Assembly (NCBI GenBank): GCA_022508465.1
Contig: JAFLVB010000002.1
Coordinates: 628 to 64,627 of the forward strand
Direction: 5' to 3'
Length of the DNA: 64,000 bases
Source: Clostridiales bacterium
GTDB lineage: Bacteria; Bacillota; Clostridia; Christensenellales; Pumilibacteraceae
Part shown: one piece after another, positions 2,181 through 43,006 of the stretch
Numbering within the stretch: the first letter of the stretch is position 1
How the letters are laid out: each line of letters begins with the position of its first letter
Notes under the pieces: generated by a model
The model's input: the letters and a program-made list of their open reading frames with translations, nothing else
The model's database searches: none
What the model was told of the DNA's origin: nothing
Made by a program: the position numbers and the translations under genes

Positions 2181-2198
2181 GGGCGGAAATTTCCGCCC
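2181..2198 (-). terminator. Rho-independent terminator ending the Opp-like operon
   Basis: Perfect palindrome GGGCGGAAATTTCCGCCC lies 20 nt after the 2218 stop. It is followed on the minus strand by ATATTTTGTT. Confidence 0.7.
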
Positions 2199-2217
2199 AC
2201 ACTTTATTAAATCTAAA

Positions 2218-3213
2218 TTAATCCTGACTGTATAAGTGGCACGCACAGAAATGATTAGGTTCGTACTCCTTGTAAACAGGTGCAACCTCTTTACATATAT
2301 CCATACACTTTGTGCAACGAGTATGGAATTTGCAACCCTTAGGCGGATTTGCGGGAGACGGAATATCACCTTTAAGAATGATACGATTCATCTTTACGTT
2401 AGGATCGGGTACAGGTACTGCAGAGAACAATGCCTGCGTGTACGGATGTAACGGATTGGCAAATATCTTTGTCTTATCTCCGCTTTCCACCATGCTACCG
2501 AGGTACATAACACCGATTTCGTCCGAAATATGTTCTACGACGGACAAGTCGTGCGAAATGAACACATAGGTAAGTCCCAATTCGTTCTGGAGGTCCTCAA
2601 GCAAGTTGATGATCTGAGCCTGAATACTAACGTCGAGCGCCGATACAGGTTCGTCGCATATAACGAGCTTGGGATTGAGTGCCAATGCTCTTGCAATACA
2701 AATACGCTGACGCTGACCACCCGAGAACTCATGCGGATAACGCTCATAGTAGTGATCCTGAAGTCCGCACTTGTGCATGATGTCCAAGATGTATTCCTTG
2801 TAATGAGCTTGGTCAACAAGCTTATGCGCAAGTACTGCCTCACCTATTATTTCGCCGACGGGAAGTCTGGGCGAAAGCGATGAATACGGGTCTTGGAATA
2901 TCATCTGTATTTGCGGTCTGATTCTACGCAACTGTTCGTGCGAAAGCTCTCTGATGTTGATACCGTTAAAGAGTACATCACCGTCGGTTATCTCATGCAA
3001 ACGCAGTATGCAACGACCCATAGTGGTCTTGCCGCAACCCGACTCACCAACGATACCGATAGTCTTACCCTTTCTGACCGTAAACGAAACGTCATCTACG
3101 GCTTTGAGGAATCTGGTCGGTTTACCAAAAAAGTTAGTGGCAATCGGGAAATATTTTTTAAGATGTCTGACGTCAAGAATAACGTCATTCTTTGCTGCAT
3201 TATTGTTTTCCAT
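2218..3213 (-). CDS. Opp/Dpp-family ABC transporter ATP-binding protein (OppF-like, 331 aa)
   Basis: Walker A GESGCGKT, signature FSGGQRQR, Walker B LVICDEPVSALD, HPYT C-terminal oligopeptide motif, and C-terminal Cys cluster CKFHTRCTKCMDIC...CACH. SD GGAGGA present. Confidence 0.92.
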   Translation of the reverse strand: MENNNAAKNDVILDVRHLKKYFPIATNFFGKPTRFLKAVDDVSFTVRKGKTIGIVGESGCGKTTMGRCILRLHEITDGDVLFNGINIRELSHEQLRRIRPQIQMIFQDPYSSLSPRLPVGEIIGEAVLAHKLVDQAHYKEYILDIMHKCGLQDHYYERYPHEFSGGQRQRICIARALALNPKLVICDEPVSALDVSIQAQIINLLEDLQNELGLTYVFISHDLSVVEHISDEIGVMYLGSMVESGDKTKIFANPLHPYTQALFSAVPVPDPNVKMNRIILKGDIPSPANPPKGCKFHTRCTKCMDICKEVAPVYKEYEPNHFCACHLYSQD

Positions 3214-3216
3214 CGC

Positions 3217-5907
3217 TTAATCCTCCTTCTCGTACAGGTGACAGGATACCTTATGAGTCGGGCTAACCTGTATCATATCGGGATAATCGCCGTTACACTT
3301 GCCGCAGCGCTTATCGCATCTGTCACGGAAGTAGCAGTAGTTGGGCATGTTGATCGGGTTGGGAACGTTACCCGGAATGCTGTACAATCTGTCCACCTTC
3401 TTGTTAACCGCGGGCTTGCTCTTTTGGAGACCCATGGTGTACGGGTGCATCGGATTGTCGAAGATTTCCTTAGCGGTACCCATTTCGATAACACGGCCTG
3501 CGTACATAACTACGACATAGTCTGCCATTTCGGCAATAACACCAAGGTCGTGAGTGATGAACATAATGGAGCCGTTGATCTTCTTCTTAACATCTCTAAG
3601 GAGGTCAAGAATCTGTGCCTGAATTGTAACGTCAAGCGCGGTTGTCGGCTCGTCGGCAATGATAAGCTTGGGATTGCACGAAAGCGCCATTGCTATCATA
3701 ACTCTCTGACGCATACCACCCGAAAGCTCGTGCGGATAGCGGTCATATACGTTTTCGGGAATAATGCCTACGAGCTTGAGCATTTCAAACGTTCTTGCCT
3801 TAGCCATTTCCTTGGTAGCGCCCGGAACGTGTAAGAATACAACTTCGTCGAGCTGATTACCGATAGTGAATATCGGGTTAAGGCTGGTCATGGGCTCTTG
3901 GAATATCATGGTAATTTCGCGACCGCGAATCTTACGCATAACTTCGGTAGGCATCTTAGCTACGTTGTAAACCTTTTCTTCTGTTTCAAAGAGAGGTACA
4001 CCGTTAATATCTTTCTTTTGCACCTTTTCGATAACAGGCTTACCGTCTTTGTCCAAAACGGGCTTACCCTTATGCATCTTGGGTGCGGTTACGTAAACGG
4101 GATTGCCGTTTTCGTCTTTGATTTCGTTGCCGTTTTCGTCAACCTTTACTTCGTAAACGGGGATGTTGTTACCGTTTTCGTCCTCTTTGTAGACTGTGGA
4201 CTTAAAGCGGATTTCACTACCCTTCATAACCTGACCCTTGGGTGCTTGAACAAGCTGCATAAGGGAAAGCGAAGTTACAGACTTACCGCAACCGGACTCA
4301 CCGATTACGCCCACGGTGCTACCTTGCGGAATGTTGAATGATACACCGTTAACGGCCTTTACAACACCTGCATCGGAGAAGAAGTATGTATGAAGATTTT
4401 CAAACTCAACAATGTTTCTGTCGTCTTTCATCTGAGTAACGTACTCGGACTCGGGAACGTTCTTACGTTTCTTTGCCTTTTCGTACTCTTTGATGGTGCG
4501 CATATTTTCTTTGGCAATACGACGGCTTTCCTTACTGGAAATATAATGCGAATCTTTGGCATTGGGGGAGAAAAGCTCCTTAACGCCGTTAACCGCTCTA
4601 CCGAAGTTGTCTTCACCAAATATAGTAGCGGGATTGTAAATCTCGGCATCCTCTACTCTGTTTTCCGCAACTCTGACGATACGAACTGCAAAAGTTACAC
4701 AAATAAGCACAACAAGTGCAATCCAGTTGAGAAGCTTAAGAACGGAGAAGAATTGGATTGTCGGAATAATTGCAAGGATTGCAAACACACAAAGTGCGAA
4801 CAATACCCAGTCACCTGCCACTATACTGCGACGCTTAGCCGAAGCAAGCAATCCGGCAAACAGAATAAGTACCGACAAATCGAGAATAAGTAAGAATCCT
4901 GCAGTAACAACAGTCTCAACCTCTCTAAAGGCATTGATTGCTATCAAGCTATACATTACGATAAAGCCGAGGATAGCGATTACTGCCGCAAATATAAGGT
5001 TGTACTTTTGCGCAAGCTGCTTAAAGTAAACTTTAAGACCTCTGTTGCCTGTGCTCTTTTCCGTGCGAGGAGCAAGTTTCTCGATATAAGTGTTCTTTAT
5101 AAGGAGAACTGCAAAGAATACAAGCACGCATAAAGCTACAAGCCAAATTACGAGCTTAGCTACCGTAAAGTTCATAAACAAGGGAATTGCATAAAGTACA
5201 GCTGCCGGGATAGCAAGCGCGATAACCGCGTCAACCTGTCCCATGCGCTTAGAAGCAATTCTGCCCGGAAGATTAAAGATCACGGTCGCTATAATAAGCA
5301 CAATAGATATTATTGTAAGGTATGTCCAGCCATTGCTGCCCGTAATCTCGACTCCATCAAACAAATAAAGGAGAGCCAAGATTGCGATGCCTACAAAGGC
5401 AAGAACAAGGATGTTAAATCTTTTAATAAACGCTGCAAAGTACGACTTAACCGTTGCATTGGGAGTTTTGTTTTCGTACAAAGTCTTTGCAATCGGTCTT
5501 GCTACTGCCATACGAACCATCGTAAGCGCAGCTACGATGAGGAGCGCTACAATGTAAAGTACGATCTGGAGCGTTGTGCTCGGCATAAAGATCAACTCTA
5601 TAAGGAACAACACAAGAAGAAGATTTGCAACATAAACGACAAAGTCTACTGCGTTGATCTTTCTGCTGCCCAGCCTTGACACAAAATAGTACAAAGCAAG
5701 CAAAGTGCAAAGTCCAAGGAATATACCGACAACAACTACAGCTGCACTCGATCTGTACTCTAACTCACCCAACACATCAAAGCTGCCGGCAGAGAGCAAT
5801 ACAACAAAGGCAACAAGAGCGGCAACAATGGGAGCGATAGTACCGTACTTATTGAGTACGGACGAATAATATTTGCCTAAACGGCTGTTTTTAAAACCTG
5901 TCAACAT
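3217..5907 (-). CDS. OppD/DppD-type ABC ATPase fused to an N-terminal ~12-TM membrane domain (896 aa)
   Basis: Residues 498-896 carry Walker A GESGCGKS, LSGGMRQR, LIIADEPTTALD, HPYT and a Cys cluster. Residues ~20-411 form about 12 hydrophobic segments. It is a single ORF with SD GGAGGG before ATG 5907. Confidence 0.85.
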   Translation of the reverse strand: MLTGFKNSRLGKYYSSVLNKYGTIAPIVAALVAFVVLLSAGSFDVLGELEYRSSAAVVVVGIFLGLCTLLALYYFVSRLGSRKINAVDFVVYVANLLLVLFLIELIFMPSTTLQIVLYIVALLIVAALTMVRMAVARPIAKTLYENKTPNATVKSYFAAFIKRFNILVLAFVGIAILALLYLFDGVEITGSNGWTYLTIISIVLIIATVIFNLPGRIASKRMGQVDAVIALAIPAAVLYAIPLFMNFTVAKLVIWLVALCVLVFFAVLLIKNTYIEKLAPRTEKSTGNRGLKVYFKQLAQKYNLIFAAVIAILGFIVMYSLIAINAFREVETVVTAGFLLILDLSVLILFAGLLASAKRRSIVAGDWVLFALCVFAILAIIPTIQFFSVLKLLNWIALVVLICVTFAVRIVRVAENRVEDAEIYNPATIFGEDNFGRAVNGVKELFSPNAKDSHYISSKESRRIAKENMRTIKEYEKAKKRKNVPESEYVTQMKDDRNIVEFENLHTYFFSDAGVVKAVNGVSFNIPQGSTVGVIGESGCGKSVTSLSLMQLVQAPKGQVMKGSEIRFKSTVYKEDENGNNIPVYEVKVDENGNEIKDENGNPVYVTAPKMHKGKPVLDKDGKPVIEKVQKKDINGVPLFETEEKVYNVAKMPTEVMRKIRGREITMIFQEPMTSLNPIFTIGNQLDEVVFLHVPGATKEMAKARTFEMLKLVGIIPENVYDRYPHELSGGMRQRVMIAMALSCNPKLIIADEPTTALDVTIQAQILDLLRDVKKKINGSIMFITHDLGVIAEMADYVVVMYAGRVIEMGTAKEIFDNPMHPYTMGLQKSKPAVNKKVDRLYSIPGNVPNPINMPNYCYFRDRCDKRCGKCNGDYPDMIQVSPTHKVSCHLYEKED

Positions 5908-5918
5908 ATTATTCCCTC

Positions 5919-7196
5919 CTATCTGCTAGCTTTGGGGTCAAACGCATCGCGCAGACCGTCGCCGATAAAGTTGAAGCCTAACACCGCAAGCACTATAAGG
6001 ATACCGGCAGGAATCCAAAGGTTTGGATAATACTGCAAGATTTCGGGCTTTTGCGCCGCACTTATCATAGTACCCCAAGCTGCGTACGGTTTGGGAATAC
6101 CGATACCCAAGTAGCTAAGCGTTGACTCGGTAAGAATGATACCACCAAGACCAAGCGTCATCTGAACTATAAGCTGCGGCATGATGTTGGGCACAAGGTG
6201 CCTTACAATTTTACGTGTAGTGCTAAGTCCGAGCGCCTCGGCAGCAACCATATATTCTTGCTCACGCAGGAAGAGTATCTGTCCACGCACGACACGCGCA
6301 ACGCCCGTCCAACCGAGCACTGTCATTATAATCATTAGGTAATAGATCTGATATCTCTGATTGATATCCGCATCCTCGAGCACCGCACCTAAGATCAAAA
6401 GTATGGGGAACTGAGGAACGCAACCGAAGATATCTACTATTCTCATTATAAGCTGGTCAACCCACTTACCGAAGTAACCGGCAAGACCACCGAACAAGAT
6501 ACCAAGGAATGTCTCTAAGAATACGACTACGAAACCAAGTGTAAGAGAGATTCTTCCGCCATACATAAGACGTACAAATACGTCCATACCGTACTCGTCG
6601 GTACCCAGCCAGTGATTGGCACTTATCTTACCCTTTTCATTGAATGTCTTACGGTCCCAAGTATATTCTGCGTATGTATAGGGAATTTTTGTACCATATT
6701 CATCACTAACATAAGCAGCTGCACTTGAGCCTGTCTGCAACATAAAGTATACCGGTTCGCCGGTAGCAGCATCTGTATAGTGTCCATATCTATTGCCGGC
6801 TTCACTATATCCGTCAAAGACAACACCGGGCAACAGCTTGGACTCATCATTAGATACTTTGCCATCTACAAAGAGAAGCGAAGCATCGATTCTTTCGTTA
6901 TAAGTTTCGGTTTTAACAACTTCACGCTTTTCTTCGGGAATAGACAAGTCTATCTCTATTTCACCCCATTGATTATAGAACACAGGGCCTAAAAACGCGA
7001 ACAAGAACAAAACTATAATAGTTACAAGTCCTATCATCGAAAGACGTGAGCGGAAAAATCTTTTTGCCACAAGGCGTCCTGGTGAAACGACTTTTACGCT
7101 GTCCGCAAGAAATTCTTCTTTCTCTTGTAAAGCAGCGTTATTTTCTTTTTCCATATTGTCCTCCTCAAGCACGGAGGTAACTTTATCTTTTTCCAT
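5919..7196 (-). CDS. Opp/Dpp-family ABC permease (OppC-like) with enlarged extracytoplasmic loop
   Basis: BPD-transporter core is present (LREQEYMVAAEALGLSTTRKIVRHLVPN). Start chosen at ATG 7196 (MEKDKV), preceded by GGAGGT. The ORF track extends to 7244 and would overlap the upstream gene. Confidence 0.88.
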   Translation of the reverse strand: MEKDKVTSVLEEDNMEKENNAALQEKEEFLADSVKVVSPGRLVAKRFFRSRLSMIGLVTIIVLFLFAFLGPVFYNQWGEIEIDLSIPEEKREVVKTETYNERIDASLLFVDGKVSNDESKLLPGVVFDGYSEAGNRYGHYTDAATGEPVYFMLQTGSSAAAYVSDEYGTKIPYTYAEYTWDRKTFNEKGKISANHWLGTDEYGMDVFVRLMYGGRISLTLGFVVVFLETFLGILFGGLAGYFGKWVDQLIMRIVDIFGCVPQFPILLILGAVLEDADINQRYQIYYLMIIMTVLGWTGVARVVRGQILFLREQEYMVAAEALGLSTTRKIVRHLVPNIMPQLIVQMTLGLGGIILTESTLSYLGIGIPKPYAAWGTMISAAQKPEILQYYPNLWIPAGILIVLAVLGFNFIGDGLRDAFDPKASR

Positions 7197-7206
7197 ACTG
7201 ACCTCC

Positions 7207-8286
7207 TTACTTGGTAATCTTGACGCGCGGGTCAACGACCGCATACATCAGGTCGGACAAAAGCGTACCTATTACACCCAATATCGCAATGAACATGTTG
7301 TAACCCATAATGAATGGGATATCACCAACGACAAGGGCCTGATATGCTTTATTACCTATACCGGGCAAATCGAATACCTGCTCGGTAATCATAGCACCAC
7401 CAAACAATCCGGGCAAAATTCCCGCTATCATTGTTACGATGGGGATAAGTGTGTTACGGAAAGCATGGCGATAAATTACAGTCTTTTCCGAACAACCTTT
7501 TGCTCGAGCAGTACGTATGTAGTCTGCATTTAAAACTTCGAGCACGTTGGTACGCGTATATCGCATAAAACCGCCTATACCCAAAATTACAAGCGCAACC
7601 ATAGGCAATACCATATGATGCAAAATGTCTAACATTCGCGCCACACCTGTATAGTTCGCTCCTGGAGATTCCATACCTACATATGGGAACCACCCTAACT
7701 GCAATGAGAACACTCTTAAGAGTAAGTTAGCAAAGAAGAATGATGGAAGCGAAATACCCATAAGTACAAGTACCGTTGCGGTATAGTCCATAACGCTATA
7801 CTGATGAGTTGCCGCCGCTATACCAAGCGCAATTGCTATAAAGAACTGCATCACCATGGCTACAAGCGCTATCCAGAACGATATCCACATACTTTGCCAC
7901 ATAACTTCGGAAACCGGCGCACCATATTTAAACGACAAGCCGAGGTCACCTTTGAATGTGGTACTCAACCACTTCCAATAACCTTCAAAGTAGTTAAATA
8001 CAGTACAGAGAGTACGCTGTCCGCTTGTAAGGCTTTCTTTTACATTCGCTTTGTCGTATTCCCATCCAAACTTGATGGCATAATCTTCATACTTGATAAT
8101 TAGACCATACAAATCCTTTTGACGGTCTACTTCCGCTTGTGTTATGGTACCTTGAGCAATTTGCGAAGCAAACTTTCTGTCAAAGTAGTCCATAGGCATA
8201 AGACGGACAAGCATGTATGTTATTATCGATACGCCAACAAGTATAAGGACCGACAATAGCAATCTTTTTATAATATATTTTACCAT
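7207..8286 (-). CDS. Opp/Dpp-family ABC permease (OppB-like, 359 aa)
   Basis: N-terminus MVKYIIKRLLLSVLILVGVSIITY is typical of OppB/DppB. It also has the motif YIRTARAKGCSEKTVIYRHAFRN. Confidence 0.9.
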   Translation of the reverse strand: MVKYIIKRLLLSVLILVGVSIITYMLVRLMPMDYFDRKFASQIAQGTITQAEVDRQKDLYGLIIKYEDYAIKFGWEYDKANVKESLTSGQRTLCTVFNYFEGYWKWLSTTFKGDLGLSFKYGAPVSEVMWQSMWISFWIALVAMVMQFFIAIALGIAAATHQYSVMDYTATVLVLMGISLPSFFFANLLLRVFSLQLGWFPYVGMESPGANYTGVARMLDILHHMVLPMVALVILGIGGFMRYTRTNVLEVLNADYIRTARAKGCSEKTVIYRHAFRNTLIPIVTMIAGILPGLFGGAMITEQVFDLPGIGNKAYQALVVGDIPFIMGYNMFIAILGVIGTLLSDLMYAVVDPRVKITK

Positions 8287-8359: not shown

Positions 8360-11300
8360 TTATTTGCACTTAACTTCCCAGAATCTCGACAAAGGTCCAC
8401 TGTACGGCGATCTGTCACTATTGAAAGTATTATCGTCAAACACGTTAGAATTGTACGCATAAACGTTAACACGTTGATATGTCGGGAGCTCAACTGCGAG
8501 ATCCATAATAAGATCATAAGCCTTAGCATAAGTTGCAGCACGTGAAGCATTATCAAGAGTGCTACGGCCTTGGTCTATCAAGTCGGCAAGGCTATTGATA
8601 ATACCTCTTTCTTCCTTATAAAGATCGGTGCTATCATTAAGAATTTCGGGATAACCCCAGTTTCTTACAGAAGTAGCCTGACTGTCTTTATGGTAAACCT
8701 GATACATATCGGGATCTACACCGGAGCCCCAAGCTGCTGCCCAAACAGTAAGAGTACCTGCAGCCAACTTACTAAGAGCGTTGGTATCTGTCTTAACGGT
8801 GATCTTAAATCCATGATCATTAAGGATATTTGCAGCATTTTGCATTGCGGTATAAGCCGGGTGATCATCGGTAGCACCTGCGATTGTAAAGGTGTACTCG
8901 AGCTTATGCTGTGTACCATCGGGAAGAGTTCTAACACCTACTTGAGTTCCGTTTTTAGTGTCATAACCTGCTTTTTGTACCAAGATATCTATTTGAGTAC
9001 CTTTTGGATCATACGAATAGTAAGGCTCTTGCTTAAATGTACTATAAATTCCGGCCGGGTTATCCGGGTTCTGCGGAGAAGCCCAAGATACGCTGGATAT
9101 GGGACGATAGATAAGCGAAGCGAAGTCAGCATAGTATGCCTTGATAAGTCTTGTATCGATAGCATGCATTATAGCCTGACGGATCTTAAGGTCGGGAACA
9201 TATTTAGCATTTATACCTATATAACCATAACCGTTATTAGGAATTGTACCCGATTTAACCGTAGAGCTTGCATTAAGCTGGTTCATGTTTTCGGTTGTTG
9301 CAGACGGATCACCATAGTCGATAGCGCCGGTCAACAACGCGTTAAGAAGCTTAGAAGTATTAACTACCTGATAACGAACATACTTGATCTTGCAGTTAGT
9401 TATAGGCGACTTATTAGCTATAGCTTCGTCATTGCTTGCATATCCTTGACCCGAAGTTGTATAGAAGTACGGGTTACGGATATAGTATACAATGTTATTG
9501 GAAAGGAATTCGGAGAATGTAGGTCTCTCTTCGGGAGTATAATCTTCCTTAGTAAAATCTCTCTTGGAAACTTTATACATACCTGCACCAACAGGTACGG
9601 AAAGAATTTTACCGGACTTAAGAACTTTGTCAAAGTAGTCCTTATCTGCAAACGGGCGGCCTACCGAGATAGGCTTTTTCGGATCATAGCCCGGACAACC
9701 CTCATAGTTAAACGAATGATAGTCAACGGCAGAAGTATATTTACCTGTTGTATCGTTAGTTGCATTGGAATAATAATGCATCGGAGTTACGGTAAAGCTG
9801 AAGTTCCAAATAGCTTGGGGGTCAACTCTATCAATAACTATTTGAAGTACATACATATCTTCCTTGAGAGTAGTAGTACCCATACGGCCTTCGAATGTAG
9901 AACCTGCAGGAAGCTGTTTTACTGTAATACCCTTAATCGTATCAACCGATTCATCGTTATGCTCCTCGAACCATTTACTCTTTTCTTCTGCAGTAAACTG
10001 ATCCAAAGCATTATTACCGGTACCCCAGTATGTAACGATCTCAGCAAGATTACTTGTAAGATTAGTTGAAGTCCAAAGAAGATTCCAGTAATTCTCATCT
10101 GAATCACTTGACTTTAAGCTGCTACGGATTGCCTTACCGTACGTATCGGTCACGATATCGCACTTGGGAGCATCAGCCTCGGATGCGGGAGCTTTATTGC
10201 CATCGGCATCTTCTTTTGTATTATCATTAGCAAGGATATTACCATTGTCGCCGATACCCATTTTAAGGTTAAATGCAATCTTGATCAAAGAATCTCTATC
10301 ATGCCACCATTTCCAAGCATTACCATAGTCGATCATCTTGTCATTCTTTTTAAGCTCTTTACCGTTTTTATCGTAATGACCACTTGCATCACTATCGGTC
10401 TTGTAGGTGTCTATTGTACCATCGCTCTTATAGTCGGCAGTTATATATCCCTCATTATAAAGGAATACTTCCCAAACCTCGGTAAAGCCAAGCGCAACAG
10501 CCTCCAACTTAGCCTTTCTTTCGGCATCCTTTTCGTTCTTGATCTTTTCGTTTTCTTCGATATAGCTATCAAGCTCGGAAATCGCACTACGGTAATCGCT
10601 GTTGATTTCATCCCAGAACATAAATCTTATAGACTCTACGTCCTCAAGAATTTCTTTTCTGTCAGCAAGCTCCTCATATCCTTGGCGATTAACTGCTCTT
10701 TTGTCGTCATCCTTAGCATACATTTCACGGATTTTTGCAAGTCTGAGGTTTGCATTTCCGCTTACAGTCTTATTGAACGATTCGTTATAAGCTTCGTTAG
10801 CATTCTCACTCTGAGTACGATACGCCAACAATCCTTGAATTGCCGTAGAGTATATAGTCGACGAACCTGTGTATACGGGATCGAGATATGTATACAAGTT
10901 AAAGATTACGTCGTTAATCGTAAGCGGCTGCCCATCGCTGAACTTAATATTGTTCTTAATAAGGAACTGATAAGTTGTGTAATAGTCGCTAGCAGGAATA
11001 TTAGCCGGCTTTCTGTCACCCAACTTGGGAGCTTCATCCTTATAATCTTTACCTTCCAAAGTTATAACCTGACTGTAGTTGAGTGCTACTGTAGGCTCAT
11101 CTTCGCCACAATATGGCTGACCGCTTGAATCTGAAGACATCATGCCAATCTGCGTTTGACCGATAATCTCATTATCGTAAGCAGATGTGGAGAAGAAGCT
11201 GTTGAATACGTTGTCAAGCTCGCCTGTGCTGAAAACAACTGCTTTTTCGTCGTCTACCTTGCCGGGCTTATCTCCAGGACCCGGGCATGCAGTCAACAAA

Positions 11301-11365
11301 ACAGTTGATGTTCCCAAAATCACAGCAAGCAAAGCAACACAAAGTATTCTTGCAAATTTTTTCAT
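8360..11365 (-). CDS. Family-5 (Opp/Dpp) substrate-binding lipoprotein, enlarged (1001 aa)
   Basis: Signal peptide with lipobox LLTAC. N-terminal SBP_bac_5-like block (IKFSDGQPLTINDVIFNLYTYLDP) and C-terminal lobe (YGYIGINAKYVPDLKIRQAIMHAID). A long insertion lies between the two. Confidence 0.85.
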   Translation of the reverse strand: MKKFARILCVALLAVILGTSTVLLTACPGPGDKPGKVDDEKAVVFSTGELDNVFNSFFSTSAYDNEIIGQTQIGMMSSDSSGQPYCGEDEPTVALNYSQVITLEGKDYKDEAPKLGDRKPANIPASDYYTTYQFLIKNNIKFSDGQPLTINDVIFNLYTYLDPVYTGSSTIYSTAIQGLLAYRTQSENANEAYNESFNKTVSGNANLRLAKIREMYAKDDDKRAVNRQGYEELADRKEILEDVESIRFMFWDEINSDYRSAISELDSYIEENEKIKNEKDAERKAKLEAVALGFTEVWEVFLYNEGYITADYKSDGTIDTYKTDSDASGHYDKNGKELKKNDKMIDYGNAWKWWHDRDSLIKIAFNLKMGIGDNGNILANDNTKEDADGNKAPASEADAPKCDIVTDTYGKAIRSSLKSSDSDENYWNLLWTSTNLTSNLAEIVTYWGTGNNALDQFTAEEKSKWFEEHNDESVDTIKGITVKQLPAGSTFEGRMGTTTLKEDMYVLQIVIDRVDPQAIWNFSFTVTPMHYYSNATNDTTGKYTSAVDYHSFNYEGCPGYDPKKPISVGRPFADKDYFDKVLKSGKILSVPVGAGMYKVSKRDFTKEDYTPEERPTFSEFLSNNIVYYIRNPYFYTTSGQGYASNDEAIANKSPITNCKIKYVRYQVVNTSKLLNALLTGAIDYGDPSATTENMNQLNASSTVKSGTIPNNGYGYIGINAKYVPDLKIRQAIMHAIDTRLIKAYYADFASLIYRPISSVSWASPQNPDNPAGIYSTFKQEPYYSYDPKGTQIDILVQKAGYDTKNGTQVGVRTLPDGTQHKLEYTFTIAGATDDHPAYTAMQNAANILNDHGFKITVKTDTNALSKLAAGTLTVWAAAWGSGVDPDMYQVYHKDSQATSVRNWGYPEILNDSTDLYKEERGIINSLADLIDQGRSTLDNASRAATYAKAYDLIMDLAVELPTYQRVNVYAYNSNVFDDNTFNSDRSPYSGPLSRFWEVKCK

Positions 11366-11431: not shown

Positions 11432-12997
11432 TTATTCCTCATCGGTGGTAGCTTCACCTTGGTCGCCCTCGGTTTCATCGCCCTCATCAGAACCGCCCGG
11501 GGTCTCACTCGGATCTTGTCCTTCCTCGCCACCGGGAGTTTCTTCGTCGGGAGTGTTCGGTTTTTGCTCTTCACCTTTTTTTGTAAAGCTAATAGAGCAG
11601 TCATCCGCAATATTGTTGCCCTCCGACTTAATCGCCTGCCATCCATCAACATATACAGTTACATCGTAGTCATTTTCAACATAACCACCCTGCAACTTAT
11701 TGTTCTCGTCACGCCAAGTCTTATAAATTTCCTTACGAGTAACTTCATACTCTGCATTAATGTTTACATTAACGAGTGTGCAGTTTTCCATAGACTTAGC
11801 AAAGATACCAACATAACATTCTCTGTCTACATCACTGCCCTCAGTCTTTCTCTCGGCATCAGGGTCTACTCCGATTTCAAATGTTACGATAGTATTTATC
11901 GTAAGATTTTTGATTGTCGCATTTTCGAGTGCTCCAAAGATTCCGCCATAGGTGTTGCCTTCGCTTGATTCACCCGTCCAATGAACTTGATTAATTGTGG
12001 TTTTGCCACCGCTAAGTGTATAACCATTACCCTCAATAGTACCGGTGTAGACAGCATCGACAACAGTATATTTACCCAATTCGATATCCTTAAGCAAATA
12101 TACATTAAGATTGTTTTTAATAGCATTCGTAAAATCCACAGCGTCGTTTACGAGTTCAAATACGCCGTCGATTTCCTTATAGTAAACAACCGTTACCAAT
12201 TTATCTGCGGCAATCGGGAATTCCATCTCGTTTTCGCACTCTTTGTCATAGTAAAACTTTAACGCCGTATTATTGGGACGCGCTACTTTATATGAATTTT
12301 TAACATCATCATTGGATATTTGAGCTCCTCCGTTATAAGTAGCATCAACCAATCTGTCAGCATATTGCTTATAAACAGCAGATTCAAATGTAAAGCTGTC
12401 ATCTGTAAGCGCTTCAAGGTTCTCCCACTCGTCGTTATTATGGTCGGCTATAATGAACTTATTATACTCAGCCCAAATAGCAACCAAAACAACGTCTTTT
12501 GTAACACGGTCACGAGTAAACACCCATTCGGTATCTTCGTAATCGTAATATTTAAGCACAACGTCCTTATAGTTAGGTATATCGCTCTCGGCAATAGCGT
12601 CGCCTGTACCGTTCTCGGTAACATAAACGCCACCGTCGGTAGATGATATCGCAGTATCACGAAGCAACGGCTTGCCGTTTTCGTCAACTTTACATACTTT
12701 CCAGCCGACAAATCTATATGCAGGTCTAACAACCGGCTCAATCACGCTTGTGCCCCCAAACGGGTCAAAGGCATGAACATCATCCTGCACATAAATATAG
12801 CGCTCAACCTTATTGTTAATCATACCACCATTACCGCAATATGTAACTAAATGATCCACTTCCGGCGGTATATAGATACCTCCACCGATGGAGCAACCGG
12901 CCAGTATGCCCGTTGCAAGTATTGCGATTAGCGATACCATCAAAAGACACTTAAATTTTCTCATAATAGTCTCCAATTTAAATTTCGTTTCTGCCAA
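11432..12997 (-). CDS. Lipoprotein of unknown function with Listeria-Bacteroides-type repeat and acidic tail (521 aa)
   Basis: Lipobox LAGCS. Flg_new-like segment is VTYCGNGG...YRFVGWKV. GLUG-like segment is GGIFGALENATIKNL. C-terminal ~50 aa are rich in E, D, G, P and T. It is the first gene of the operon. Confidence 0.6.
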   Translation of the reverse strand: MAETKFKLETIMRKFKCLLMVSLIAILATGILAGCSIGGGIYIPPEVDHLVTYCGNGGMINNKVERYIYVQDDVHAFDPFGGTSVIEPVVRPAYRFVGWKVCKVDENGKPLLRDTAISSTDGGVYVTENGTGDAIAESDIPNYKDVVLKYYDYEDTEWVFTRDRVTKDVVLVAIWAEYNKFIIADHNNDEWENLEALTDDSFTFESAVYKQYADRLVDATYNGGAQISNDDVKNSYKVARPNNTALKFYYDKECENEMEFPIAADKLVTVVYYKEIDGVFELVNDAVDFTNAIKNNLNVYLLKDIELGKYTVVDAVYTGTIEGNGYTLSGGKTTINQVHWTGESSEGNTYGGIFGALENATIKNLTINTIVTFEIGVDPDAERKTEGSDVDRECYVGIFAKSMENCTLVNVNINAEYEVTRKEIYKTWRDENNKLQGGYVENDYDVTVYVDGWQAIKSEGNNIADDCSISFTKKGEEQKPNTPDEETPGGEEGQDPSETPGGSDEGDETEGDQGEATTDEE

Positions 12998-13060: not shown

Positions 13061-13089
13061 AGTATATCAAAATCTATAATCGTTGTCAA
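13061..13089 (-). promoter_or_regulatory. Sigma-70-type promoter of the lipoprotein/Opp-like operon
   Basis: On the minus strand: TTGACA (13084-13089), 17-nt spacer, TATACT (13061-13066). It lies about 65 nt upstream of ATG 12997. Confidence 0.6.
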
Positions 13090-13351: not shown

Positions 13352-13382
13352 TAAAAAACAGCCCCGTTCGTTAGAACGGAGC
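13352..13382 (-). terminator. Rho-independent terminator after the giant protease gene
   Basis: On the minus strand: GCTCCGTTC-TAAC-GAACGGGGC followed by TGTTTTTT. It lies 17 nt after the stop at 13399. Confidence 0.7.
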
Positions 13383-13398
13383 CGTTTATAGTTAGCAA

Positions 13399-16300
13399 TT
13401 ATTTTTGTGCAGACTTCTTTTTGCGTAAGAGCACCACAAGGAGAGATACAAGCATTACAGCGAACAAGCCAACCATAAGGCCTGTGCCACCATTATTACC
13501 TGCTCCGAATGCTACTGTTCCGCAGCTACCGCAACCTTCTTTTTCGCCGCCTTTATCTTCAAGCTCACTGATCTTAGCTTCGCACTGCTCAAGCTTGGTA
13601 ACAAGAGCTGCGTTTTCAGTAGCAAATACAGACTGGTTAGTAGAAGTAAGAGCATCGTATGCCTCGCGTGCAGCCACTACAGCATCTTTATCTTTAAGTG
13701 TAATGTCAGCAGGATCGGGGAGCTCATTGATAAGATCTTTAACCGCCTGACGACGAGCAGCATCATTGCCATCGATCTCAGCCAATCTCTGTTCGCAAGC
13801 TTCAAGGCGATCAAGCAAGCCTTCCTTGATAACAAATACTTGTTGCTCAAAGCTGGACAAGCTGTCGTATCTACCACGAGCGCTTTCGATATCATCTCTA
13901 TGAGCTACGGTCACTTTATTCGCCTCGGGCAATGCGCGTATAAGATCCATAACAATTCTTGTCGTGTCTTCCATAAGTTCGGGCATAAGAAGCGTGCTAT
14001 CAAAGTAGTTAGCCCAAATGAAGTTGTCAAAGCCCTTAGCATTGGACGGTCTTTCTACTACCATACCATACGGATAGCCTGTGAATCCACCGCCTGTGTA
14101 AGACTCATTCTGTAATTGCATGGACGAATTCAAATCAACACGCTTATCATACTCATCATGCATACGTATACTGTTATACTTAAAGGCTCCGCCATCAGGT
14201 GAATATGTGAACGGTTGATAGAAGTTATTATACATCTGCCAGAAGTAAACATCGCCATTTTCGGTCTCTGTTGTTGCATAACCGGCTTCAAGCTCGGGCG
14301 CCTGCAAAGTTTCGAAATTGTAGATTCTTACATCGGAACTTGCAAATGCACCATCACCTATCCATCTTACGCTGTCGGGAATGTTTACCTTAAAGATATA
14401 CTGATTGAAGTAGAATGCATAATTGCCGATACGAATTGTACCATCCATTACAGTAAACTCTGTCGACTGTTGATATAATGTCGGAACAGCAACAAGCTCG
14501 TAACCGCCCTCTACGTATCTATAAAGAGCCAATTCATCAGACTGGAAGTATCTCGGATTTTCGCCGTAGAATACATATCCAAGTACCGAAGAAGCTATAA
14601 ATGCCGTCGGGTGAATATATTCGAGATCAGCACTCAATATACCCAAATAGCGGTAATATTCAGGAAGATCCAATTCTTTATCCGGATAAACCTGATTAAC
14701 TGCGGTATTTGCGAATGCATACATACCGATCGTTTTAGCTTGAGGCATATATACCTTAGTCAAGCTCGTGCATGAATAGAATGCTAAAGCACCGATTTCG
14801 GTACAAGCATCAAGCTCGATAGCCTCTAGCTTATTTTGATAATAGAACGCACCCGTACCTAATGTTTTAGCCATGGGGATATTAACCGTTTTAATCGTAG
14901 CTATCGACTCTCCGGTTTCCTCGTTATTTCCGGGAGCAAATGCATAGTCACCGATATAAGTTGCAACCCTAAGGTCAACACTTTCAAGGTTAGAGCAGCC
15001 TGCAAATGCTTGCTCCGCTATATAAGTACAATTGATAAGTCTGATAGACGGTATTGCAGTATAGCAGAATGCTCCGACACCTATACGTGTAATTCTGGTA
15101 AGGTTACCATTTTCGGTAAAACCACTATCCGCACTCGGCGATACGGTGTTGATAAGCGCAAGGCTTGAGCAGCCGTAGAATGTCGTGTCCGCAATTTCAG
15201 TTACATTGGAAGGCAAAGTAATCGCCTTGAGCTCAGTATTCTCGGCAAATGCACCCATACCTATTTCGGATATTGTATTAGGCAGCTCGATTCTCTCAAA
15301 TACTGTTTTATAGAACGCAAATTGACCTATCTTAGTAATCGGATCTCGAGTATCATCTATTGTTGCAGGGAAGTTAACATCTTTAAGGCTTGTGCACTCA
15401 TAGAACATTAAATCAGTTATATTATGCTGGGGAAGAGTAACCTCTGTAAGTGCAGAACACATAAAGAATATACCATCACCAAACTCCTCGATTCCGCTAA
15501 TGTCAGCTTTCTCGATATAAGTGTTAGCTCCGAATGCATAATCACCTATCTTGGTAACGCCGTCCAAAACATCGTTAGCATTTGTAAATTCTTTTGCGCC
15601 CGGAACGGCAATAAGCATATCGCCTTCTTTGTTATAAATAACACCGTTCTTAGAGGTCAAGTACGCGTTATCAGGTTCTACTTCAAATTCGGCAAGATTT
15701 TTGCATCCATAGAACGGAGTACCTGCCGAAGCGGAAACCTGTCCGTTTTCCGTAGTCCATTTGCAATTCTTATCTATAACTAACTTTCCGATATATTCAC
15801 ATTGCGAGAATGCAGCGGTACCTAATTTTTCAAGGCCTGCCGGCAACTTAAACTCGCCTGCTTCGCCATCTGCCGTTTTACCGATTTCGGTTGCAAAGAA
15901 TGCCTGGTTTCCGATTTCACGGCAGCCGTTTTTGAAGTTAATTTCCTCGATTTTACTATATGCAAACGCAGCTTCGCCTATCGAGTAAACAGGCTTCTCG
16001 AATGTTACTTTCTTTACACTGCTGTAAATGAATGCACCCATTTCGATAACTACATTGTCAGCAGTAAATGTTATTTCTTCCAACTCACCGATATAAGAGG
16101 GAGTGTATTTAGTTTCAACATCGGCATCCGGATTTTCCTGTTCTTCATCCTCATGAACATCCTCTTGTTCCTCGGTCAAGCCATAGAACATCTGAGCAGA
16201 TATTCTTCTCATGGGAAGAGTAACTTTACCTATACCGTTACCAACGAATGCAGCAATACCAGCATAAGTGTTTTCGCCAAATATTACATCGGCATATTTG

Positions 16301-19300
16301 GGACCGTTTTCGCCGTTAAAGTGGTTATGTAAGGACGAGCCGATATTGAAGAATGCACCAATACTTGCACCACGCAATCCGGTAAGGTCAAGCTTGGAAA
16401 CAAACGCCAAGTTAGCAAAAGCATATTTGTCAACAACTCTTACCATCTTAGTGTTAAACAACTCACGATCTGCTTCGCTTATAAGGACAATTTTATTCTT
16501 GCCATCTTTATCATCGCCAAAATCGAAATTAGCTTCTCCACCTGACGCCTTGATACTTGCTTCGATATCTACGCCGATATATTTTTGGTTAGCAAATGCA
16601 TAAGCTGCAATCTGTAACGGCTTAGCGCAGTCACTGGTGTCTACTATGGAAAGTCCCGGAACAGGACCCTCGGCAGCCGTCTCATATTTTGCTATAAATG
16701 CGTATTGGTCAATCTTTTGCAAAGTGGAGGGGAATTTTACTCTTCTCAAGTCAATCATGTATGCGCAAGCGGCTCTACCGATTGTCTCAAGTCCCTCGGG
16801 GAATATGATGTACTCAATACCTTTACGCTCGTAGAACAACGAAGAAGCAATAGTAGTAATATTGAGGTTAGACGGAATTGTCACCGTCATCAAACCTGTT
16901 TTTTCATCTAATATAGGCGTACCATGATATTCGGTAAGCTCATTACCCGTAGTAACAAACTCCTCATATACATAAGCCGCAAACTGTGCGGAATAAACGG
17001 TTGTGTCATACGCTCCGTATACAGGATCGTTGTTTTTGCCGTTTTCGGATATTTTGCAAAGCTGAGCAGTAACAGTAGCAAAAGCCGAGATATTCTTTAC
17101 ATATTCGCCATCATAGTCAGAGCCTCTGTTGGCAGTTACTACAGCCTTAAATATACTGTATTCCTCACCAAACTTAGCAGCATCCGCGCGAGTCATCGGC
17201 CTTACGGCTGCTACACGATCATTGCTCGAAGTCCAACGAATAAAGTATTTACCAGAGATAATATCACTTTCAAGCTCATAATACCATGGGTCATGCTCGA
17301 GCTCGATAATGTATTCTTCACCTGCATCGAAAGCCCAACCCGATACTTTAAACGACAACGAGTTAAGATTCTGGTCTGCCTGAAGTGTGCTTACGGGAAT
17401 TTTATACTTAGCTGCATCTTCGAGCGAGAGCACTTTTACGGTAAGGGTTGCCGAAGCATTGCGATTTACACGCGAGGTAATGGTTACAGTAGCCTCACCT
17501 GCTCCTTCTGCATATATCTCACCTGTTTCATCATTAACTCTGACGATTGCAGGTGCGCTGGATGTGAATACAAAGTCTTCACGCCAAGCTGTAGCCGGAG
17601 TGGGTACAACAGCCTTCATAAGTTCTATCTTTTGACCCTTGATAATAGTTACCGATCTGAGTGTCGAATCCTCCTTCGGGGTGTCATTATAAGATGTCAT
17701 TACGTTTACTTGGTTAGTAACATTATTTTCGGTATAAGAATAAGTAGCATAGTTACCGATATCGCCAAACTGAACGCTCTCCATGTACTCGTAAAGCTCC
17801 ATAAGGTCTATGGTATAGTACGAAGTATTAAACGCATAGTCATAAAGTGTAACCTTGAACTGAGTAAGATATGTACCAAGTTCGGGATGAGCAGCTATCG
17901 CAGCAGCATTATTGAGATTTTCAAGCTGATAAAGTATACCATCTTGAATCTGTTCCCACATATAAGTCAAGTTCAAAGATACAAGGGTTGTTGCATTACG
18001 TTGAGTAATAATCGGACGTAAAGTACCGTCCACAGGGTCAAACGTAGATACATATTCTTCCTTATCCTTATCGTAAGCAGTGAGCGACATTGCCTGTATA
18101 TAATGGTTATCTGTAAGATACATATCAAGATAATACGACGCATTATCAGAGCTGTCTCTTACTACACGAAGCTCGGTATTGGAAATGAACGGAGCATCTG
18201 TATCATACCAGAAATCAGTCGACCAGTAGTATCTGATTCTATTGTCTTCGCAAGCGCAATTTGCATCTTGGCAATCCTCATTGACAATGCATCTCTCCTT
18301 ATCCGAGCATTCGCAACGGCTAAGCATCTTGTTTATATTGTAATCAATTACATCCTGTTTAGTCTTAAATTGGTCAGCATGCCAGTCGAGCACAGGATAG
18401 CAAGTGAAGGTATACTTGTGGTTGTTGACAAAGTCCATTTGAGTCATATCGATCTCAAAGTAAGCACCGCCATATCCACTTGCAGCTGACGCTTTACGCG
18501 CCGAGCGGTAAGTTGAGCCGTAAATATAATCTCCTGTTACAGCATCGGTAATTTCCCAGAACAACCTTTTAGCACCACGAAGGAATCCGGCTACACCATA
18601 GATACCGCTTATAGCCGAATCTGTATTAAACGATACTGCAGCCTTATCTGCTTCTGCATCGGGTCCGGTATAACCTTCGGGCAAATTGAATACATATGAA
18701 CCCATCGGGAACGAATACTCTTGTCCGTTTTCTGTATATTTACCAAGGAGCTGAATGGGCTGAGCATTGCTGTAACGCTTATCGTCCTCGTCGATTGTAT
18801 CATCATTTAAATCCTTAGATGTCTCATAAATTTCATAGTCGATTATGGGTGCATCCGACCAGTCGCCATAGAATGCAAGATACGGAATGTTAAGGTCGAT
18901 ACCGTTTACCTTATCTTCATTTATAAGGCGAACAAAGCCATCTACATACATACCGTTTTTAAAGTTTGCAAGCCATTCTCTGTCCTTGTCGCCAAGAGTA
19001 ATTGTATAAGTAATTTTTACCGAAGACTTAGCTGCGACGGTAATAGTGCTATCCAATTCTTTAGCAACTCCATCCACCTTAAGAGCAGCGGTATAATCTG
19101 TAAGCATACGAGATTTTTCGGTAACCGTCTTCTCATCCGAAGATATACCCTCAGTCATAACATGGCTGCTTATTGTGTAGCTTGCAGACGAGCTACCTAC
19201 GTTTTTAACATAGAATTCTACGGTGTATTCGCCTTTTTTGGACGGATCGTCACCAAGCTCAACCTTGGTACGCTCCTGCTCTACGCCGTTTTTCATTACA

Positions 19301-21798: not shown

Positions 21799-21899
21799 AG
21801 GTCCTCCTTGACTTGATGAAATGTAAATTATTAATAGATCGTCAGGCTGTCGCCCGAGACTTATTACAGGATAAAATACCCGATAATACGAGTACAAGA

Positions 21900-21997: not shown

Positions 21998-23761
21998 TCA
22001 TTTATTGTCGCCGCAAAAATGACGATAGATGAAAATTTGACTTTTATTTACATTTTTTACCACTAAAATCGCTTCATTATCGGGTATAAAGGCCCCTTCC
22101 TCACAGATGTCTTCACCGCTTAAATTGACAATTAAAGTAAGCGAAATGTCGCCATCACTCCTTACAATCTTAAAAACATTATTTGACGGGGACTCGTCTG
22201 TGCAAGATCCGCTAAAAACAGATGCATATTGTCTTCTTATCTCGCCAAGGCGCTTATAATGAGCTATCAGTTCGGCGTTTTCATTACCCCAGGGGTAGCA
22301 TTTTCGGCAAAACGGGTCCTCGTGCCCGCTAAGTCCCGCCTCATCTCCATAATATAGACATGGCACACCCGGCAGGATATACTGAATAAGCGAGGCGAGC
22401 TTCACCCGCTGCGCCGCCTCGATGATATCCGATTGAGTATATTCCGCTCTTTCGTCCTTGCTTTGCGGGCGCTCGTCGTTAGATAATGCCGTAATTATTC
22501 TATCCGTATCATGAGTGCCGAGTATATTCATCATAGACAAAAAGACCTCGGACGGGTAGTCGTTTATAAGCTCTCTTAACGTTTTTCTTAGCAGCGTATT
22601 ATCACCTGTCAATAAAAACTCTATTATTCCTGCTTTAAATGGATAATTTGTCACCCCGTCAAGCTGTTTTCCCAAAAAGTAGCTACGTCTACTGCCATAA
22701 GCGAATTTGCGAGCGGCGTTTTCCCATACTTCGCCAATTAGCGTGACATTAGTATCACTATGCAGCCTGTCCAAAAAGGCGCTATGCAGCTCGTCTGCAA
22801 CGTCAAGACGCCACCCCACTATACCTTTCCGCCCCCATCTCTCAATTACGCCATTACTGCCAAGCATAAAATCCATATATGAGGGCGACGCCTCATTGAC
22901 TTCGGGCAGAGTTTCAAATCCCCACCAACATTTATACTCGTTTGGATATCGGTTAAAACTGTACCACTCGTAGTATAGGCTTGACTGAGACTGATACGCT
23001 CCCAACGTATCATAATTGCCGTATCTATTAAAATATTTGCTATCGGCACCCGTATGCGAAAACACCCCGTCAAGGATAATACCAATACCTCGCTTTTTTG
23101 CCTCTAAAACGAGACTATCGAAATCCTCCTCGGTTCCTAATGTTGAGTCTATCTTTTCGTAGTCGCCCGTATCGTATCTATGACTGCTCGCCGCCTCGAA
23201 TATCGGATTTAAGTAGATATACGTTACACCTAAATCCTTTAGATAGTCGAGTTTTGATATAATGCCTTGTAAATTGCCGCCAAAAAACTCGTTGTTATAC
23301 TTGCCGCTTTCGTCAGGCAAATGTGACGGCACAGCATACCAGTCCTCTTGAAATTTAGCACCCGTCTTTATATTTGGCTTGCCCTCAATATAAAAACGGT
23401 CGGGCATTATCTGATAGATAACCCCGCCGCTTAGTGGTCTAAAGCTGCCCTCGTATACAAGCTGAAGATAGTCGCTACCATTTACAATCAAGTTTAAAAA
23501 CTCGTCGCTGCCATATCTGACGCCGTCAATCAAAAAATAGTAAAAATACAGCCCACAGGTAGTTATATTTAGGTTTACGGTAAAGCCGTCGTTAAACCTA
23601 TCCATATCGTAATAAACAGGCACATGTCCCTCGCCTTCCTTAGTAAGCACAAGGGTAGCAGAGTGCGCCTCGCCCAATATGTTTACGGTAAGAGGGTGGC
23701 CTGCTTTTACGCCACCCACTCTGCTCTTAAATCGACTATATAGTGGGCAATACTCAATCAT
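21998..23761 (-). CDS. GH13 alpha-amylase-family enzyme (neopullulanase/cyclomaltodextrinase-like, cytoplasmic)
   Basis: GH13 conserved regions are present: YQIMPDRF, GWRLDVADEL, IGEVWE, LGTHDTDR. No signal peptide. It overlaps glgP by 8 nt. Confidence 0.85.
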   Translation of the reverse strand: MIEYCPLYSRFKSRVGGVKAGHPLTVNILGEAHSATLVLTKEGEGHVPVYYDMDRFNDGFTVNLNITTCGLYFYYFLIDGVRYGSDEFLNLIVNGSDYLQLVYEGSFRPLSGGVIYQIMPDRFYIEGKPNIKTGAKFQEDWYAVPSHLPDESGKYNNEFFGGNLQGIISKLDYLKDLGVTYIYLNPIFEAASSHRYDTGDYEKIDSTLGTEEDFDSLVLEAKKRGIGIILDGVFSHTGADSKYFNRYGNYDTLGAYQSQSSLYYEWYSFNRYPNEYKCWWGFETLPEVNEASPSYMDFMLGSNGVIERWGRKGIVGWRLDVADELHSAFLDRLHSDTNVTLIGEVWENAARKFAYGSRRSYFLGKQLDGVTNYPFKAGIIEFLLTGDNTLLRKTLRELINDYPSEVFLSMMNILGTHDTDRIITALSNDERPQSKDERAEYTQSDIIEAAQRVKLASLIQYILPGVPCLYYGDEAGLSGHEDPFCRKCYPWGNENAELIAHYKRLGEIRRQYASVFSGSCTDESPSNNVFKIVRSDGDISLTLIVNLSGEDICEEGAFIPDNEAILVVKNVNKSQIFIYRHFCGDNK

Positions 23762-27566: not shown

Positions 27567-27591
27567 AATCGTTCTCCCGTTATATTTTATG

Positions 27592-42800: not shown

Positions 42801-43006
42801 AAGCAAAACCTCCTTATGGGTGCTAATGCATATGATATCACATTTTGATAAAATTGAAAAGCAAAAATGAGCACTTTTTTAAAATAGTTAAAAATATCCT
42901 GTTTTGCACTCACATTTATCACATATGTTTTGCGATTTTATTTAACACTAATTTCACAATATTGACGATAATCTCTCCACCTTATCTAATTTAGGGCATA
43001 CAAAAA

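Follow-up and report, generated by a model that had tools for sequence, protein, structure and literature searches.

In textbook type I ABC importers the ATPases are soluble and are bound to the permeases only via coupling helices. Closest to the locus described here are the OppD and DppD ATPases of solved peptide importers, from E. coli OppBCDF (8z21), E. coli DppBCDF (8z1v), and M. tuberculosis OppABCD (8j5q). We analysed a 64,000-nucleotide stretch of a Clostridiales bacterium genome (contig JAFLVB010000002.1; hereafter the window), on whose reverse strand one gene, at 3217-5907 (-), encodes an 896-residue protein consisting of a transmembrane domain (TMD), a linker, and an OppD ATPase. Like its solved counterparts the protein has the motif set of an OppD/DppD nucleotide-binding domain (NBD), an oligo_HPY domain, the four-Cys spacing, and a predicted fold that matches 8z21_C (target-normalised TM-score, TMt, 0.87); like theirs, its operon encodes OppB, OppC, OppF, and a family-5 substrate-binding protein (SBP). 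It differs in adding a 497-residue N-terminus, made up of 12 predicted transmembrane (TM) helices and the linker, and a beta-ribbon insertion of ~75 residues in the NBD. The Opp importer and the canonical OppD NBD are already known, and what is new is the accessory membrane domain attached to such an importer. Full-text searches of an incomplete library, and hence an absence of evidence, returned no description of a membrane-domain-fused or membrane-anchored OppD.

A conceptual parallel is TMD0, an accessory domain of eukaryotic ABC transporters that ABCC/SUR proteins also carry. In TAP, TMD0 is an N-terminal membrane domain that is autonomous and works as an interaction hub (PMC3437018). As in TAP1/TAP2 and ABCC/SUR, the window protein would have an extra autonomous membrane domain at its N-terminus, outside the core translocation unit; in contrast to them, it has 12 helices rather than 4-5, and these are placed ahead of an NBD subunit, in a type I importer, rather than ahead of an exporter's core TMD. 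PDB profile and Foldseek searches gave no sequence or fold match to the TMD0 of TAP or ABCC, and the resemblance is an analogy, functional and conceptual only. We estimate a probability of about one half that the 12-TM domain keeps OppD at the membrane, acting as an integral, TMD0-like anchor or scaffold.

The fused gene and its conservation

The 896 codons run in one frame with zero internal stops and end in a stop codon at 3217-3219 (coordinates are window positions, and all genes and parts of genes given below lie on the reverse strand). An identical 896-residue protein is called on ENA metagenome contig k141_789916. A Shine-Dalgarno sequence, AGGAGG(G), precedes the ATG by ~7 nucleotides, at 5914-5920 (-), where it shares bases with the stop codon of oppC. 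This bears out a preliminary description of the window, made from the sequence alone, which reported a single 896-codon open reading frame (ORF) preceded by GGAGGG and noted that internal Met codons ahead of the NBD lack such a site: the sequence upstream of the in-frame Met469 and Met493 has no Shine-Dalgarno-like match. A consensus scan of the TMD coding region found no promoter-like match above chance.

GenBank gives the gene as a 428-residue ABC ATP-binding protein (NCBI MCH5163447.1) that is 100% identical to residues 469-896 (3217-4503) and starts from the internal Met469, omitting 468 N-terminal codons and with them the whole TMD. Because the identical sequence is started there, the membrane domain is invisible in public annotation. 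In comparing the gene with this entry we used the identical ENA contig and an 88%-identical strain for gene context. The short annotation speaks for a trivial explanation, a mis-assembly or frameshift or translation of the NBD only from Met469, which we regard as extremely improbable. The perfect Shine-Dalgarno sequence before Met1, the lack of one before Met469 and Met493, and the lack of an above-chance promoter-like match within the TMD coding region all stand against it, as does the comparison with other genomes that follows.

We scanned one genome per GTDB species with a four-sequence alignment, seeding on the linker motif. The complete N-terminal region (residues 1-497) was found in six uncultured Clostridia metagenome-assembled genomes from rabbit and sheep gut. 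Conservation of the fusion, which the preliminary description had proposed to check, extends as a single ORF to five other species-level genomes (L005, L006, L007, L008, and L010; 841-906 residues, uninterrupted) and to the 88%-identical strain (P0269/L033), where the 896-residue ORF aligns without gaps. Synteny is alike in the five: a lipoprotein, an SBP of ~1000 residues, OppB, OppC, the fusion, OppF, and, further downstream, AsnS. Seven independent assemblies have thus kept the frame open although their TMDs diverge by 35-75% in amino-acid sequence.

Selection was gauged from the close pair formed by the window gene and L033, because synonymous divergence (dS) is saturated between species-level orthologues and the ratio of non-synonymous to synonymous rates (dN/dS) is unreliable there. 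The TMDs of the pair differ at 115 non-synonymous and 96 synonymous positions without any indel, giving a dN/dS of 0.33 at a dS of 0.40, which indicates that the TMD is translated and constrained. The ratio falls to 0.09 in the linker (7 non-synonymous, 15 synonymous), 0.04 in the NBD insertion (3 and 15), and 0.024 in the NBD (5 and 48). Purifying selection on the TMD is therefore ~14-fold weaker than on the NBD, and identity among orthologues is 25-65% in the TMD and 89-97% in the NBD.

In the sixth genome the same two parts occur as separate genes, in L009, which lies on the same contig as L001. Here the TMD is a gene of 425 residues whose stop codon overlaps (ATGA) the start of a 487-residue oppD, and this oppD has its own GGAGG 6 nucleotides upstream of the start. 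A duplicated VYAPG motif flanks the break in L009/L001. In L001 at 9985-10060 (L009 ~9259-9330) an imperfect direct repeat, GTGTATGCTCCCGG / GTATATGCTCCCGG, with both copies coding for VYAPG, brackets the ~45-nucleotide segment that supplies the stop codon, the GGAGG, and the new ATG. L009 and the fused genomes are a genuine fission or fusion pair; a true split brings a new Shine-Dalgarno sequence and start codon with it, a further point against translation from Met469. Going by these comparisons of sequence, we conclude that the fusion is real and translated.

Architecture and relatives of the membrane domain

The TMD occupies residues 1-420 (4648-5907). By a Kyte-Doolittle scan, residues 22-414 contain 12 hydrophobic segments, in good agreement with the approximately 12 segments first described at residues ~20-411. 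Lys and Arg number 28 in the predicted cytoplasmic loops and 3 in the outer loops, which are only 5-16 residues long; the domain is therefore predicted to be N-in/C-in, with the NBD in the cytoplasm. Hydropathy, the positive-inside distribution, and an AlphaFold2 (AF2) model all underlie this topology. The model, made from an alignment of 19 TMD relatives, is all-helical, with a predicted local distance difference test score (pLDDT) of 80 and a predicted TM-score (pTM) of 0.75.

From the same 19-sequence alignment we read the anatomy of the domain as three tandem four-helix units of ~140 residues each: residues 1-143 (5479-5907), 144-286 (5050-5478), and 287-420 (4648-5049). Each unit begins with a cationic amphipathic pre-helix that carries a conserved Tyr (Y13, Y156, and Y294, the last followed by F295), followed by two helices and then by a basic cytoplasmic turn ending in an invariant Asp (D88, D226, D366) at the start of the third helix. 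Two further helices complete the unit, which is usually closed by Arg (R132 at the end of TM4, and R409); the second unit also carries R216 and T273. Profile comparison of repeat against repeat (hhalign) gave a probability of 99% and E-values of 1e-17 to 1e-19.

The strongly conserved polar residues, that is, the three Tyr and three Asp together with R132, R216, and R409, all lie at the cytoplasmic interface; in the family alignment the membrane core and the outer face are without any. Conservation does not differ significantly between cytoplasmic and outer helix halves (p = 0.27), so that only individual polar positions are informative. In the L010 orthologue (P0001) two helices of the third repeat are deleted, D366 among the losses; the number of helices is still even.

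Searches for a known family were negative. A Pfam and NCBIfam scan of residues 1-497 matched no family (Pfam at E 0.01), and so none of the type I importer permeases (BPD_transp_1, PF00528); 10 TMD homologues compared with Pfam at E 0.1 matched no ABC TMD family and again not PF00528. A PDB profile search with the TMD returned nothing below E 0.5, and a Foldseek comparison of the modelled TMD with the PDB, a check suggested in the preliminary description, found no structural analogue (best E 0.95, query-normalised TM-score, TMq, 0.18). The TMD types of ABC exporters (ABC_membrane, ABC2, FtsX) were considered and rejected, with no Pfam match and with Foldseek exporter matches at E ≥3 and TMq ~0.1. 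Identity with the THU-type repeats of Piezo was likewise rejected: Piezo1 appeared in Foldseek at E 6.4-7.7 and TMq 0.12, which is noise, and the TMD shares with Piezo arrays just the abstract pattern of 4-TM repeats with pre-helices. The domain stands outside every described ABC TMD class or other family, as the earlier view of a third, unassigned membrane module distinct from OppB and OppC had it, and is a candidate new domain family.

These features bear on whether the TMD might form a second translocation path, a transporter or channel energised or gated by the fused OppD, with a dual function such as import combined with export or flipping. A 12-TM domain is similar in size to many transporters, its direct fusion to an ABC ATPase is as in half-transporters, and each repeat has its invariant Asp. 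We nevertheless find this very unlikely. The TMD is unlike any ABC TMD type or transporter family, its conserved Asp, Arg, and Tyr sit at the cytoplasmic boundary and not in the membrane core, and no conserved cytoplasmic loop resembling a coupling helix is evident in it. Exporters couple TMD and NBD tightly, whereas here a 77-residue linker intervenes whose first ~33 residues are flexible; paralogues of the TMD either carry a non-ATPase domain or stand alone; and the OppD NBD already has OppF as its obligatory partner on OppBC. The TMD is probably not a substrate pathway, since it lacks a conserved intramembrane polar residue, evolves fast, and has lost two helices in one species.

Some 20 relatives of the TMD came out of an exhaustive HMMER search across 1.84 billion representatives. 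Word-indexed searches gave 2 proteins with the TMD alone and 1 with the 19-sequence profile, hydrophobic words saturating the candidate list. The relatives have three architectures: stand-alone proteins of 412-482 residues, OppD fusions, and proteins in which an acidic linker joins the TMD to an unrelated region in the cytosol. Four of the last kind (P0009, P0010, P0015, P0029) end in a Ribosomal_L27A/uL15-like domain above the Pfam gathering score (PF00828, E 3e-6 to 6e-5). In these four, and also in P0013, P0124, and P0133 and at locus L030 7412-9700, an acidic low-complexity linker and an unassigned region of ~150 residues follow the TMD; a ribosomal-protein-like domain on a membrane protein is odd. 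The uL15-like fusions and the stand-alone genes sit outside opp operons, and the window has one copy of the TMD. Because the TMD is found as stand-alone paralogues and, in L009, as a split gene, it appears to be an autonomous module.

This modularity raises the possibility of an unrelated passenger, a stand-alone membrane gene that landed between oppC and oppD, was fused in frame, and functions apart from peptide import. Stand-alone genes and other fusions of the family in unrelated contexts would fit this, as would the existence of the split form. The link between TMD and oppD, whether as a fusion or as adjacent and translationally coupled genes, has however been kept in at least 7 species-level lineages across which synonymous divergence is saturated, and fusion fixes the two partners in 1:1 stoichiometry and in one place, which is rarely neutral. 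A sister lineage, moreover, has a helix of the membrane-binding type at the same site (see below). We hold a passenger to be distinctly unlikely.

Role of the membrane domain

The TMD is joined to the NBD by a cytoplasmic linker (residues 421-497, 4417-4647) whose first ~33 residues are predicted to be flexible (pLDDT <50, residues 421-453). The remainder contains a conserved basic motif, SHYISSKESRRIAKENMRTIKEYEKAKKRKNVPESEYVTQ, at residues 453-492 (4432-4551), with the consensus (H)YISxKESRRIAKEN...KKRKNVPESEY and a confident AF2 helix at 458-479. In addition to the relatives above, ~110 HMMER matches cover residues ~450-496 only, and in many Clostridia, Christensenellaceae included, ordinary OppD proteins without a TMD have this motif as their N-terminus.

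Most informative among these is a sister lineage (P0151/L032) with a TMD-less OppD of 492 residues, in a cluster of 138 members of which one is present on up to 495 contigs. P0151 is 84% identical to the window protein over the linker and NBD, and its synteny is the same, down to a small membrane protein and AsnS. It shares this synteny and the basic linker motif with Christensenellaceae-type OppD proteins (L011-L028); the difference from the window protein is a short amphipathic or basic N-terminal peptide instead of 12 TM helices. In P0151 the place of the TMD is taken by MEKIKEFFNKVGNWFVKVGHWFAKIGKDLYNKVKNWI, a cationic segment rich in Trp and Phe whose helical hydrophobic moment of 0.62 was equalled by 11 of 2000 shuffles. 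Cationic amphipathic helices rich in Trp and Phe typically bind the membrane in-plane. Other relatives have shorter N-terminal segments of the KIKxWY type, or a 220-residue tail rich in Lys, Thr, Ser, and Ala. The tail is that of P0161/P0164 (Pumilibacter muris and relatives), where ~220 histone-H1-like residues and an acidic stretch precede the same basic linker motif.

To judge by the P0151 segment and the N-termini of the other relatives, a membrane-associated OppD N-terminus seems to recur in this subfamily, with the TMD as its most extreme form. The order of accretion can be read from the same comparison, because the linker motif and the NBD insertion also occur in relatives that lack the TMD: the linker motif, widespread in clostridial OppD, is oldest, followed by the hairpin insertion in a subset and then by the TMD in a small herbivore-gut clade.

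The linker helix also bears on whether the TMD could be a sensor or regulator of membrane state, responding to tension, lipid composition, or potential and gating the ATPase activity or assembly of OppD via the linker. The TMD is nearly all intramembrane with short loops, its conserved residues cluster at the cytoplasmic interface beside the linker, the confidently predicted and conserved basic helix comes right before the NBD, and there is a superficial likeness to the repeat units of Piezo in the 4-TM units and their amphipathic pre-helices on the cytoplasmic side. The Foldseek matches to Piezo, though, are noise (E 6-8, TMq ~0.1), and most relatives have the same linker helix without any TMD. 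Fast evolution of the TMD and the two-helix loss in L010 argue against fine tuning, and the regulation itself is presumed. We therefore consider such a sensor unlikely. The preliminary description had left scaffold, sensor, and second translocation path side by side; the scaffold is now favoured, whereas a sensor of extracellular ligands is disfavoured by outer loops of only 5-16 residues and a second path on the grounds given above.

We suggest that the TMD serves as an anchor, in the following way. The gene encodes the OppD ATPase of an SBP-dependent ABC importer, presumably of peptides (lipoprotein-SBP-OppB-OppC-OppD-OppF), whose canonical NBD presumably powers OppBC as usual. The autonomous 12-TM domain would insert N-in/C-in and tether the NBD by the ~77-residue linker, flexible at first, keeping OppD permanently at the membrane beside OppBC. 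Its cytoplasmic face, with the repeated Y...R...D...R constellation, may serve lateral or docking contacts. The TMD may thus replace, in stronger form, the cationic amphipathic helix found at the same position in the sister lineage. Its features are more those of an anchor than of a channel, because it diverges fast relative to the NBD, has lost helices in L010, conserves polar residues at the interface only, and has short outer loops.

Several points weigh against the anchor. The NBDs of ABC importers normally stay bound through coupling helices, and both contact of the TMD with OppB/OppC and a need of OppD for extra anchoring are things that we infer. Twelve helices far exceed what an anchor needs, and the dN/dS of 0.33 is real constraint. 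The threefold recurrence of the invariant Asp/Arg/Tyr triads could point to a functional site that binds an ion, a lipid, or a partner rather than to a structural latch. The argument from the amphipathic helix draws on sequence properties only, and the AF2 model of the TMD was read from its scores and all-helical content only.

If the uL15-like fusions are taken together with the OppD fusions, the TMD might belong to an undescribed family of bacterial membrane proteins that are active partners of cytosolic machines, here coupling ATP hydrolysis or NBD dimerisation of the Opp system to a second membrane event, while the uL15-like paralogues tether ribosome- or RNA-related domains. We think this joint reading improbable. 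If true, the second event might be lipid or ion movement, mechanosensing, or the recruitment of the neighbouring protease and lipoproteins to a peptide-harvesting supercomplex, and the fusion would be the first case of a type I importer ATPase bearing a TMD0-type accessory domain whose role goes beyond anchoring.

The importer and its wider meaning

The ATPase part of the protein is the OppD/DppD-type NBD with oligo_HPY that the preliminary description had recognised at residues 498-896 (3220-4416). Pfam finds ABC_tran (PF00005) in two stretches (E 5e-25) and oligo_HPY (PF08352; E 9e-18), a PDB profile search matches solved OppD/DppD proteins (8j5q_D, E 1e-112; also 8z21_C and 8z1v_C), and Foldseek of the NBD model matches 8z21_C/8z1w_C (E 1e-31, TMt 0.87). 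The catalytic motif set is full: Walker A GESGCGKS (residues 536-543, 4279-4302), Q-loop MIFQEP (667-672, with Q670; 3892-3909), the ABC signature LSGGM (728-732) through Walker B IIADEP (749-754; together 3646-3726), and the H-loop His, H786. Cys858, Cys864, Cys871, and Cys889 (3241-3336), kept among relatives, are spaced C-x5-C-x6-C-x17-C. This is the spacing of the [4Fe-4S] ligands in E. coli DppD (PMC12136057), and the four residues form a putative cluster site. The NBD missed the NCBIfam cut-offs for OppD (NF007010, 311.6 vs 575 bits) and DppD (NF008246, 308.3 vs 541 bits). We therefore place the gene in the broad OppD/DppD family, outside the E. coli-type equivalogs, and take peptides as its presumed substrate.

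The NBD contains an insertion of ~75-85 residues in the ABC-beta hairpin that follows the Walker A helix (residues ~566-650, 3958-4212), built of reiterated D-E-N-G-N / P-V-Y units. Walker A is separated from the Q-loop Gln by 126 residues, compared with 43 in the OppF of the same operon and 53-55 in members of the OppD subfamily that lack the insertion; alignment to solved OppD leaves ~77 extra residues. The insertion of ~80 residues with DENGN and PVY motifs that had been described is thus present and reiterated, but its size varies with the comparator (~72-85 residues) and it is also found in TMD-less OppD proteins, namely L011-L015, L022, and P0151, while other TMD-less relatives lack it. 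AF2 predicts an ordered beta-ribbon (pLDDT ~88-93, with a beta-bridge pattern). In P0156 (585 residues) and P0203 (723 residues) the insertion has expanded into long tandem arrays, such as KEPVWDDDEEGNPVYEPVMKQTG x5 and PVLGENGEPVTERRQKRDERGKKLFKPVLE x3. Judging by these, it behaves as an expandable repeat array inside the catalytic domain. Mollicutes OppD/OppF (NF043079 MMSYN1_0167, NF043078) also have extra residues between Walker A and Q-loop, likened to the insertion by site alone. They differ in having no N-terminal TMD, and the window protein, aligned to NF043079 with residues 651-891 on profile positions 293-534 of 561, scores 300.2 bits against a cut-off of 740.

The fused gene is embedded in a complete opp operon. 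OppF, the partner ATPase, has 331 residues (2218-3213) and neither insertion nor TMD; OppB (359 residues, 7207-8286) and OppC (425 residues by the ENA call, 5919-7196; longest ORF to 7244) are separate permease proteins, as had been noted. Further upstream are a family-5 substrate-binding lipoprotein of 1001 residues (8360-11365) and, as the first gene, a 521-residue lipoprotein (11432-12997) that is conserved in synteny and matches no Pfam or NCBIfam family. The best promoter-like site, TTGACA-17-TGnTATACT, lies upstream of the operon at 13061-13089 (-), and a hairpin or terminator-like site follows oppF at 2183-2200 (-); both are consensus matches only. The whole Opp system is unusually decorated: OppC has an extracytoplasmic insertion of ~130 residues, the SBP is about twice normal size with SBP_bac_5 in two stretches (best at residues 587-893), and the tail of the 521-residue lipoprotein is acidic and rich in Gly, Glu, Thr, and Pro.

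Downstream of oppF, an ORF of 87 residues (1679-1942) has a poly-Lys/Asp N-terminus (MFKKKKKKKYDDDDG...), one C-terminal TM helix, and no family; similar small genes (85-90 residues) lie between oppF and asnS in L001, L002, L004, L032, and L033. Directly upstream of the operon, beyond a strong terminator-like hairpin (13356-13387), is a secreted S8 subtilase of 2832 residues (13399-21897) with Peptidase_S8, PA, Fn3-like, Big_2, and BspA-type LRR_5 domains. This protein probably acts as a protease of the cell envelope and supplies the importer, reminiscent of the pairing of cell-envelope protease and Opp in lactic acid bacteria. Next comes a glycogen cluster (21998-31662) encoding an alpha-amylase family protein, glycogen phosphorylase, starch/glycogen synthase, two GlgC/GlgD-type nucleotidyltransferases, and branching enzyme. 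A surface protein of 1623 residues (37935-42806), with eight BspA-type LRR_5 stretches and Listeria-Bacteroides repeats, is the second giant LRR_5 protein of the window besides the subtilase.

An OppD with its own conserved 12-helix domain breaks the textbook pattern of importers, and the TMD-OppD fusion will surprise ABC-transporter specialists. Its distribution is narrow, a small clade of uncultured herbivore-gut Clostridia, and the role of the TMD is one that we infer. For annotation, the locus highlights that homology-guided start selection can hide N-terminal fusions such as TMD-OppD, because GenBank calls the gene an ordinary 428-residue ATPase from an internal Met. For the study of membrane proteins, a TMD with neither a family nor a solved analogue, made of three 4-TM repeats and also joined to a ribosomal-protein-like domain, is a candidate new domain family. 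For ABC importers, the TMD, as a fusion or as a coupled gene, provides a natural system in which to ask whether membrane retention of the NBD, assembly of the complex, or lateral organisation limits importers.

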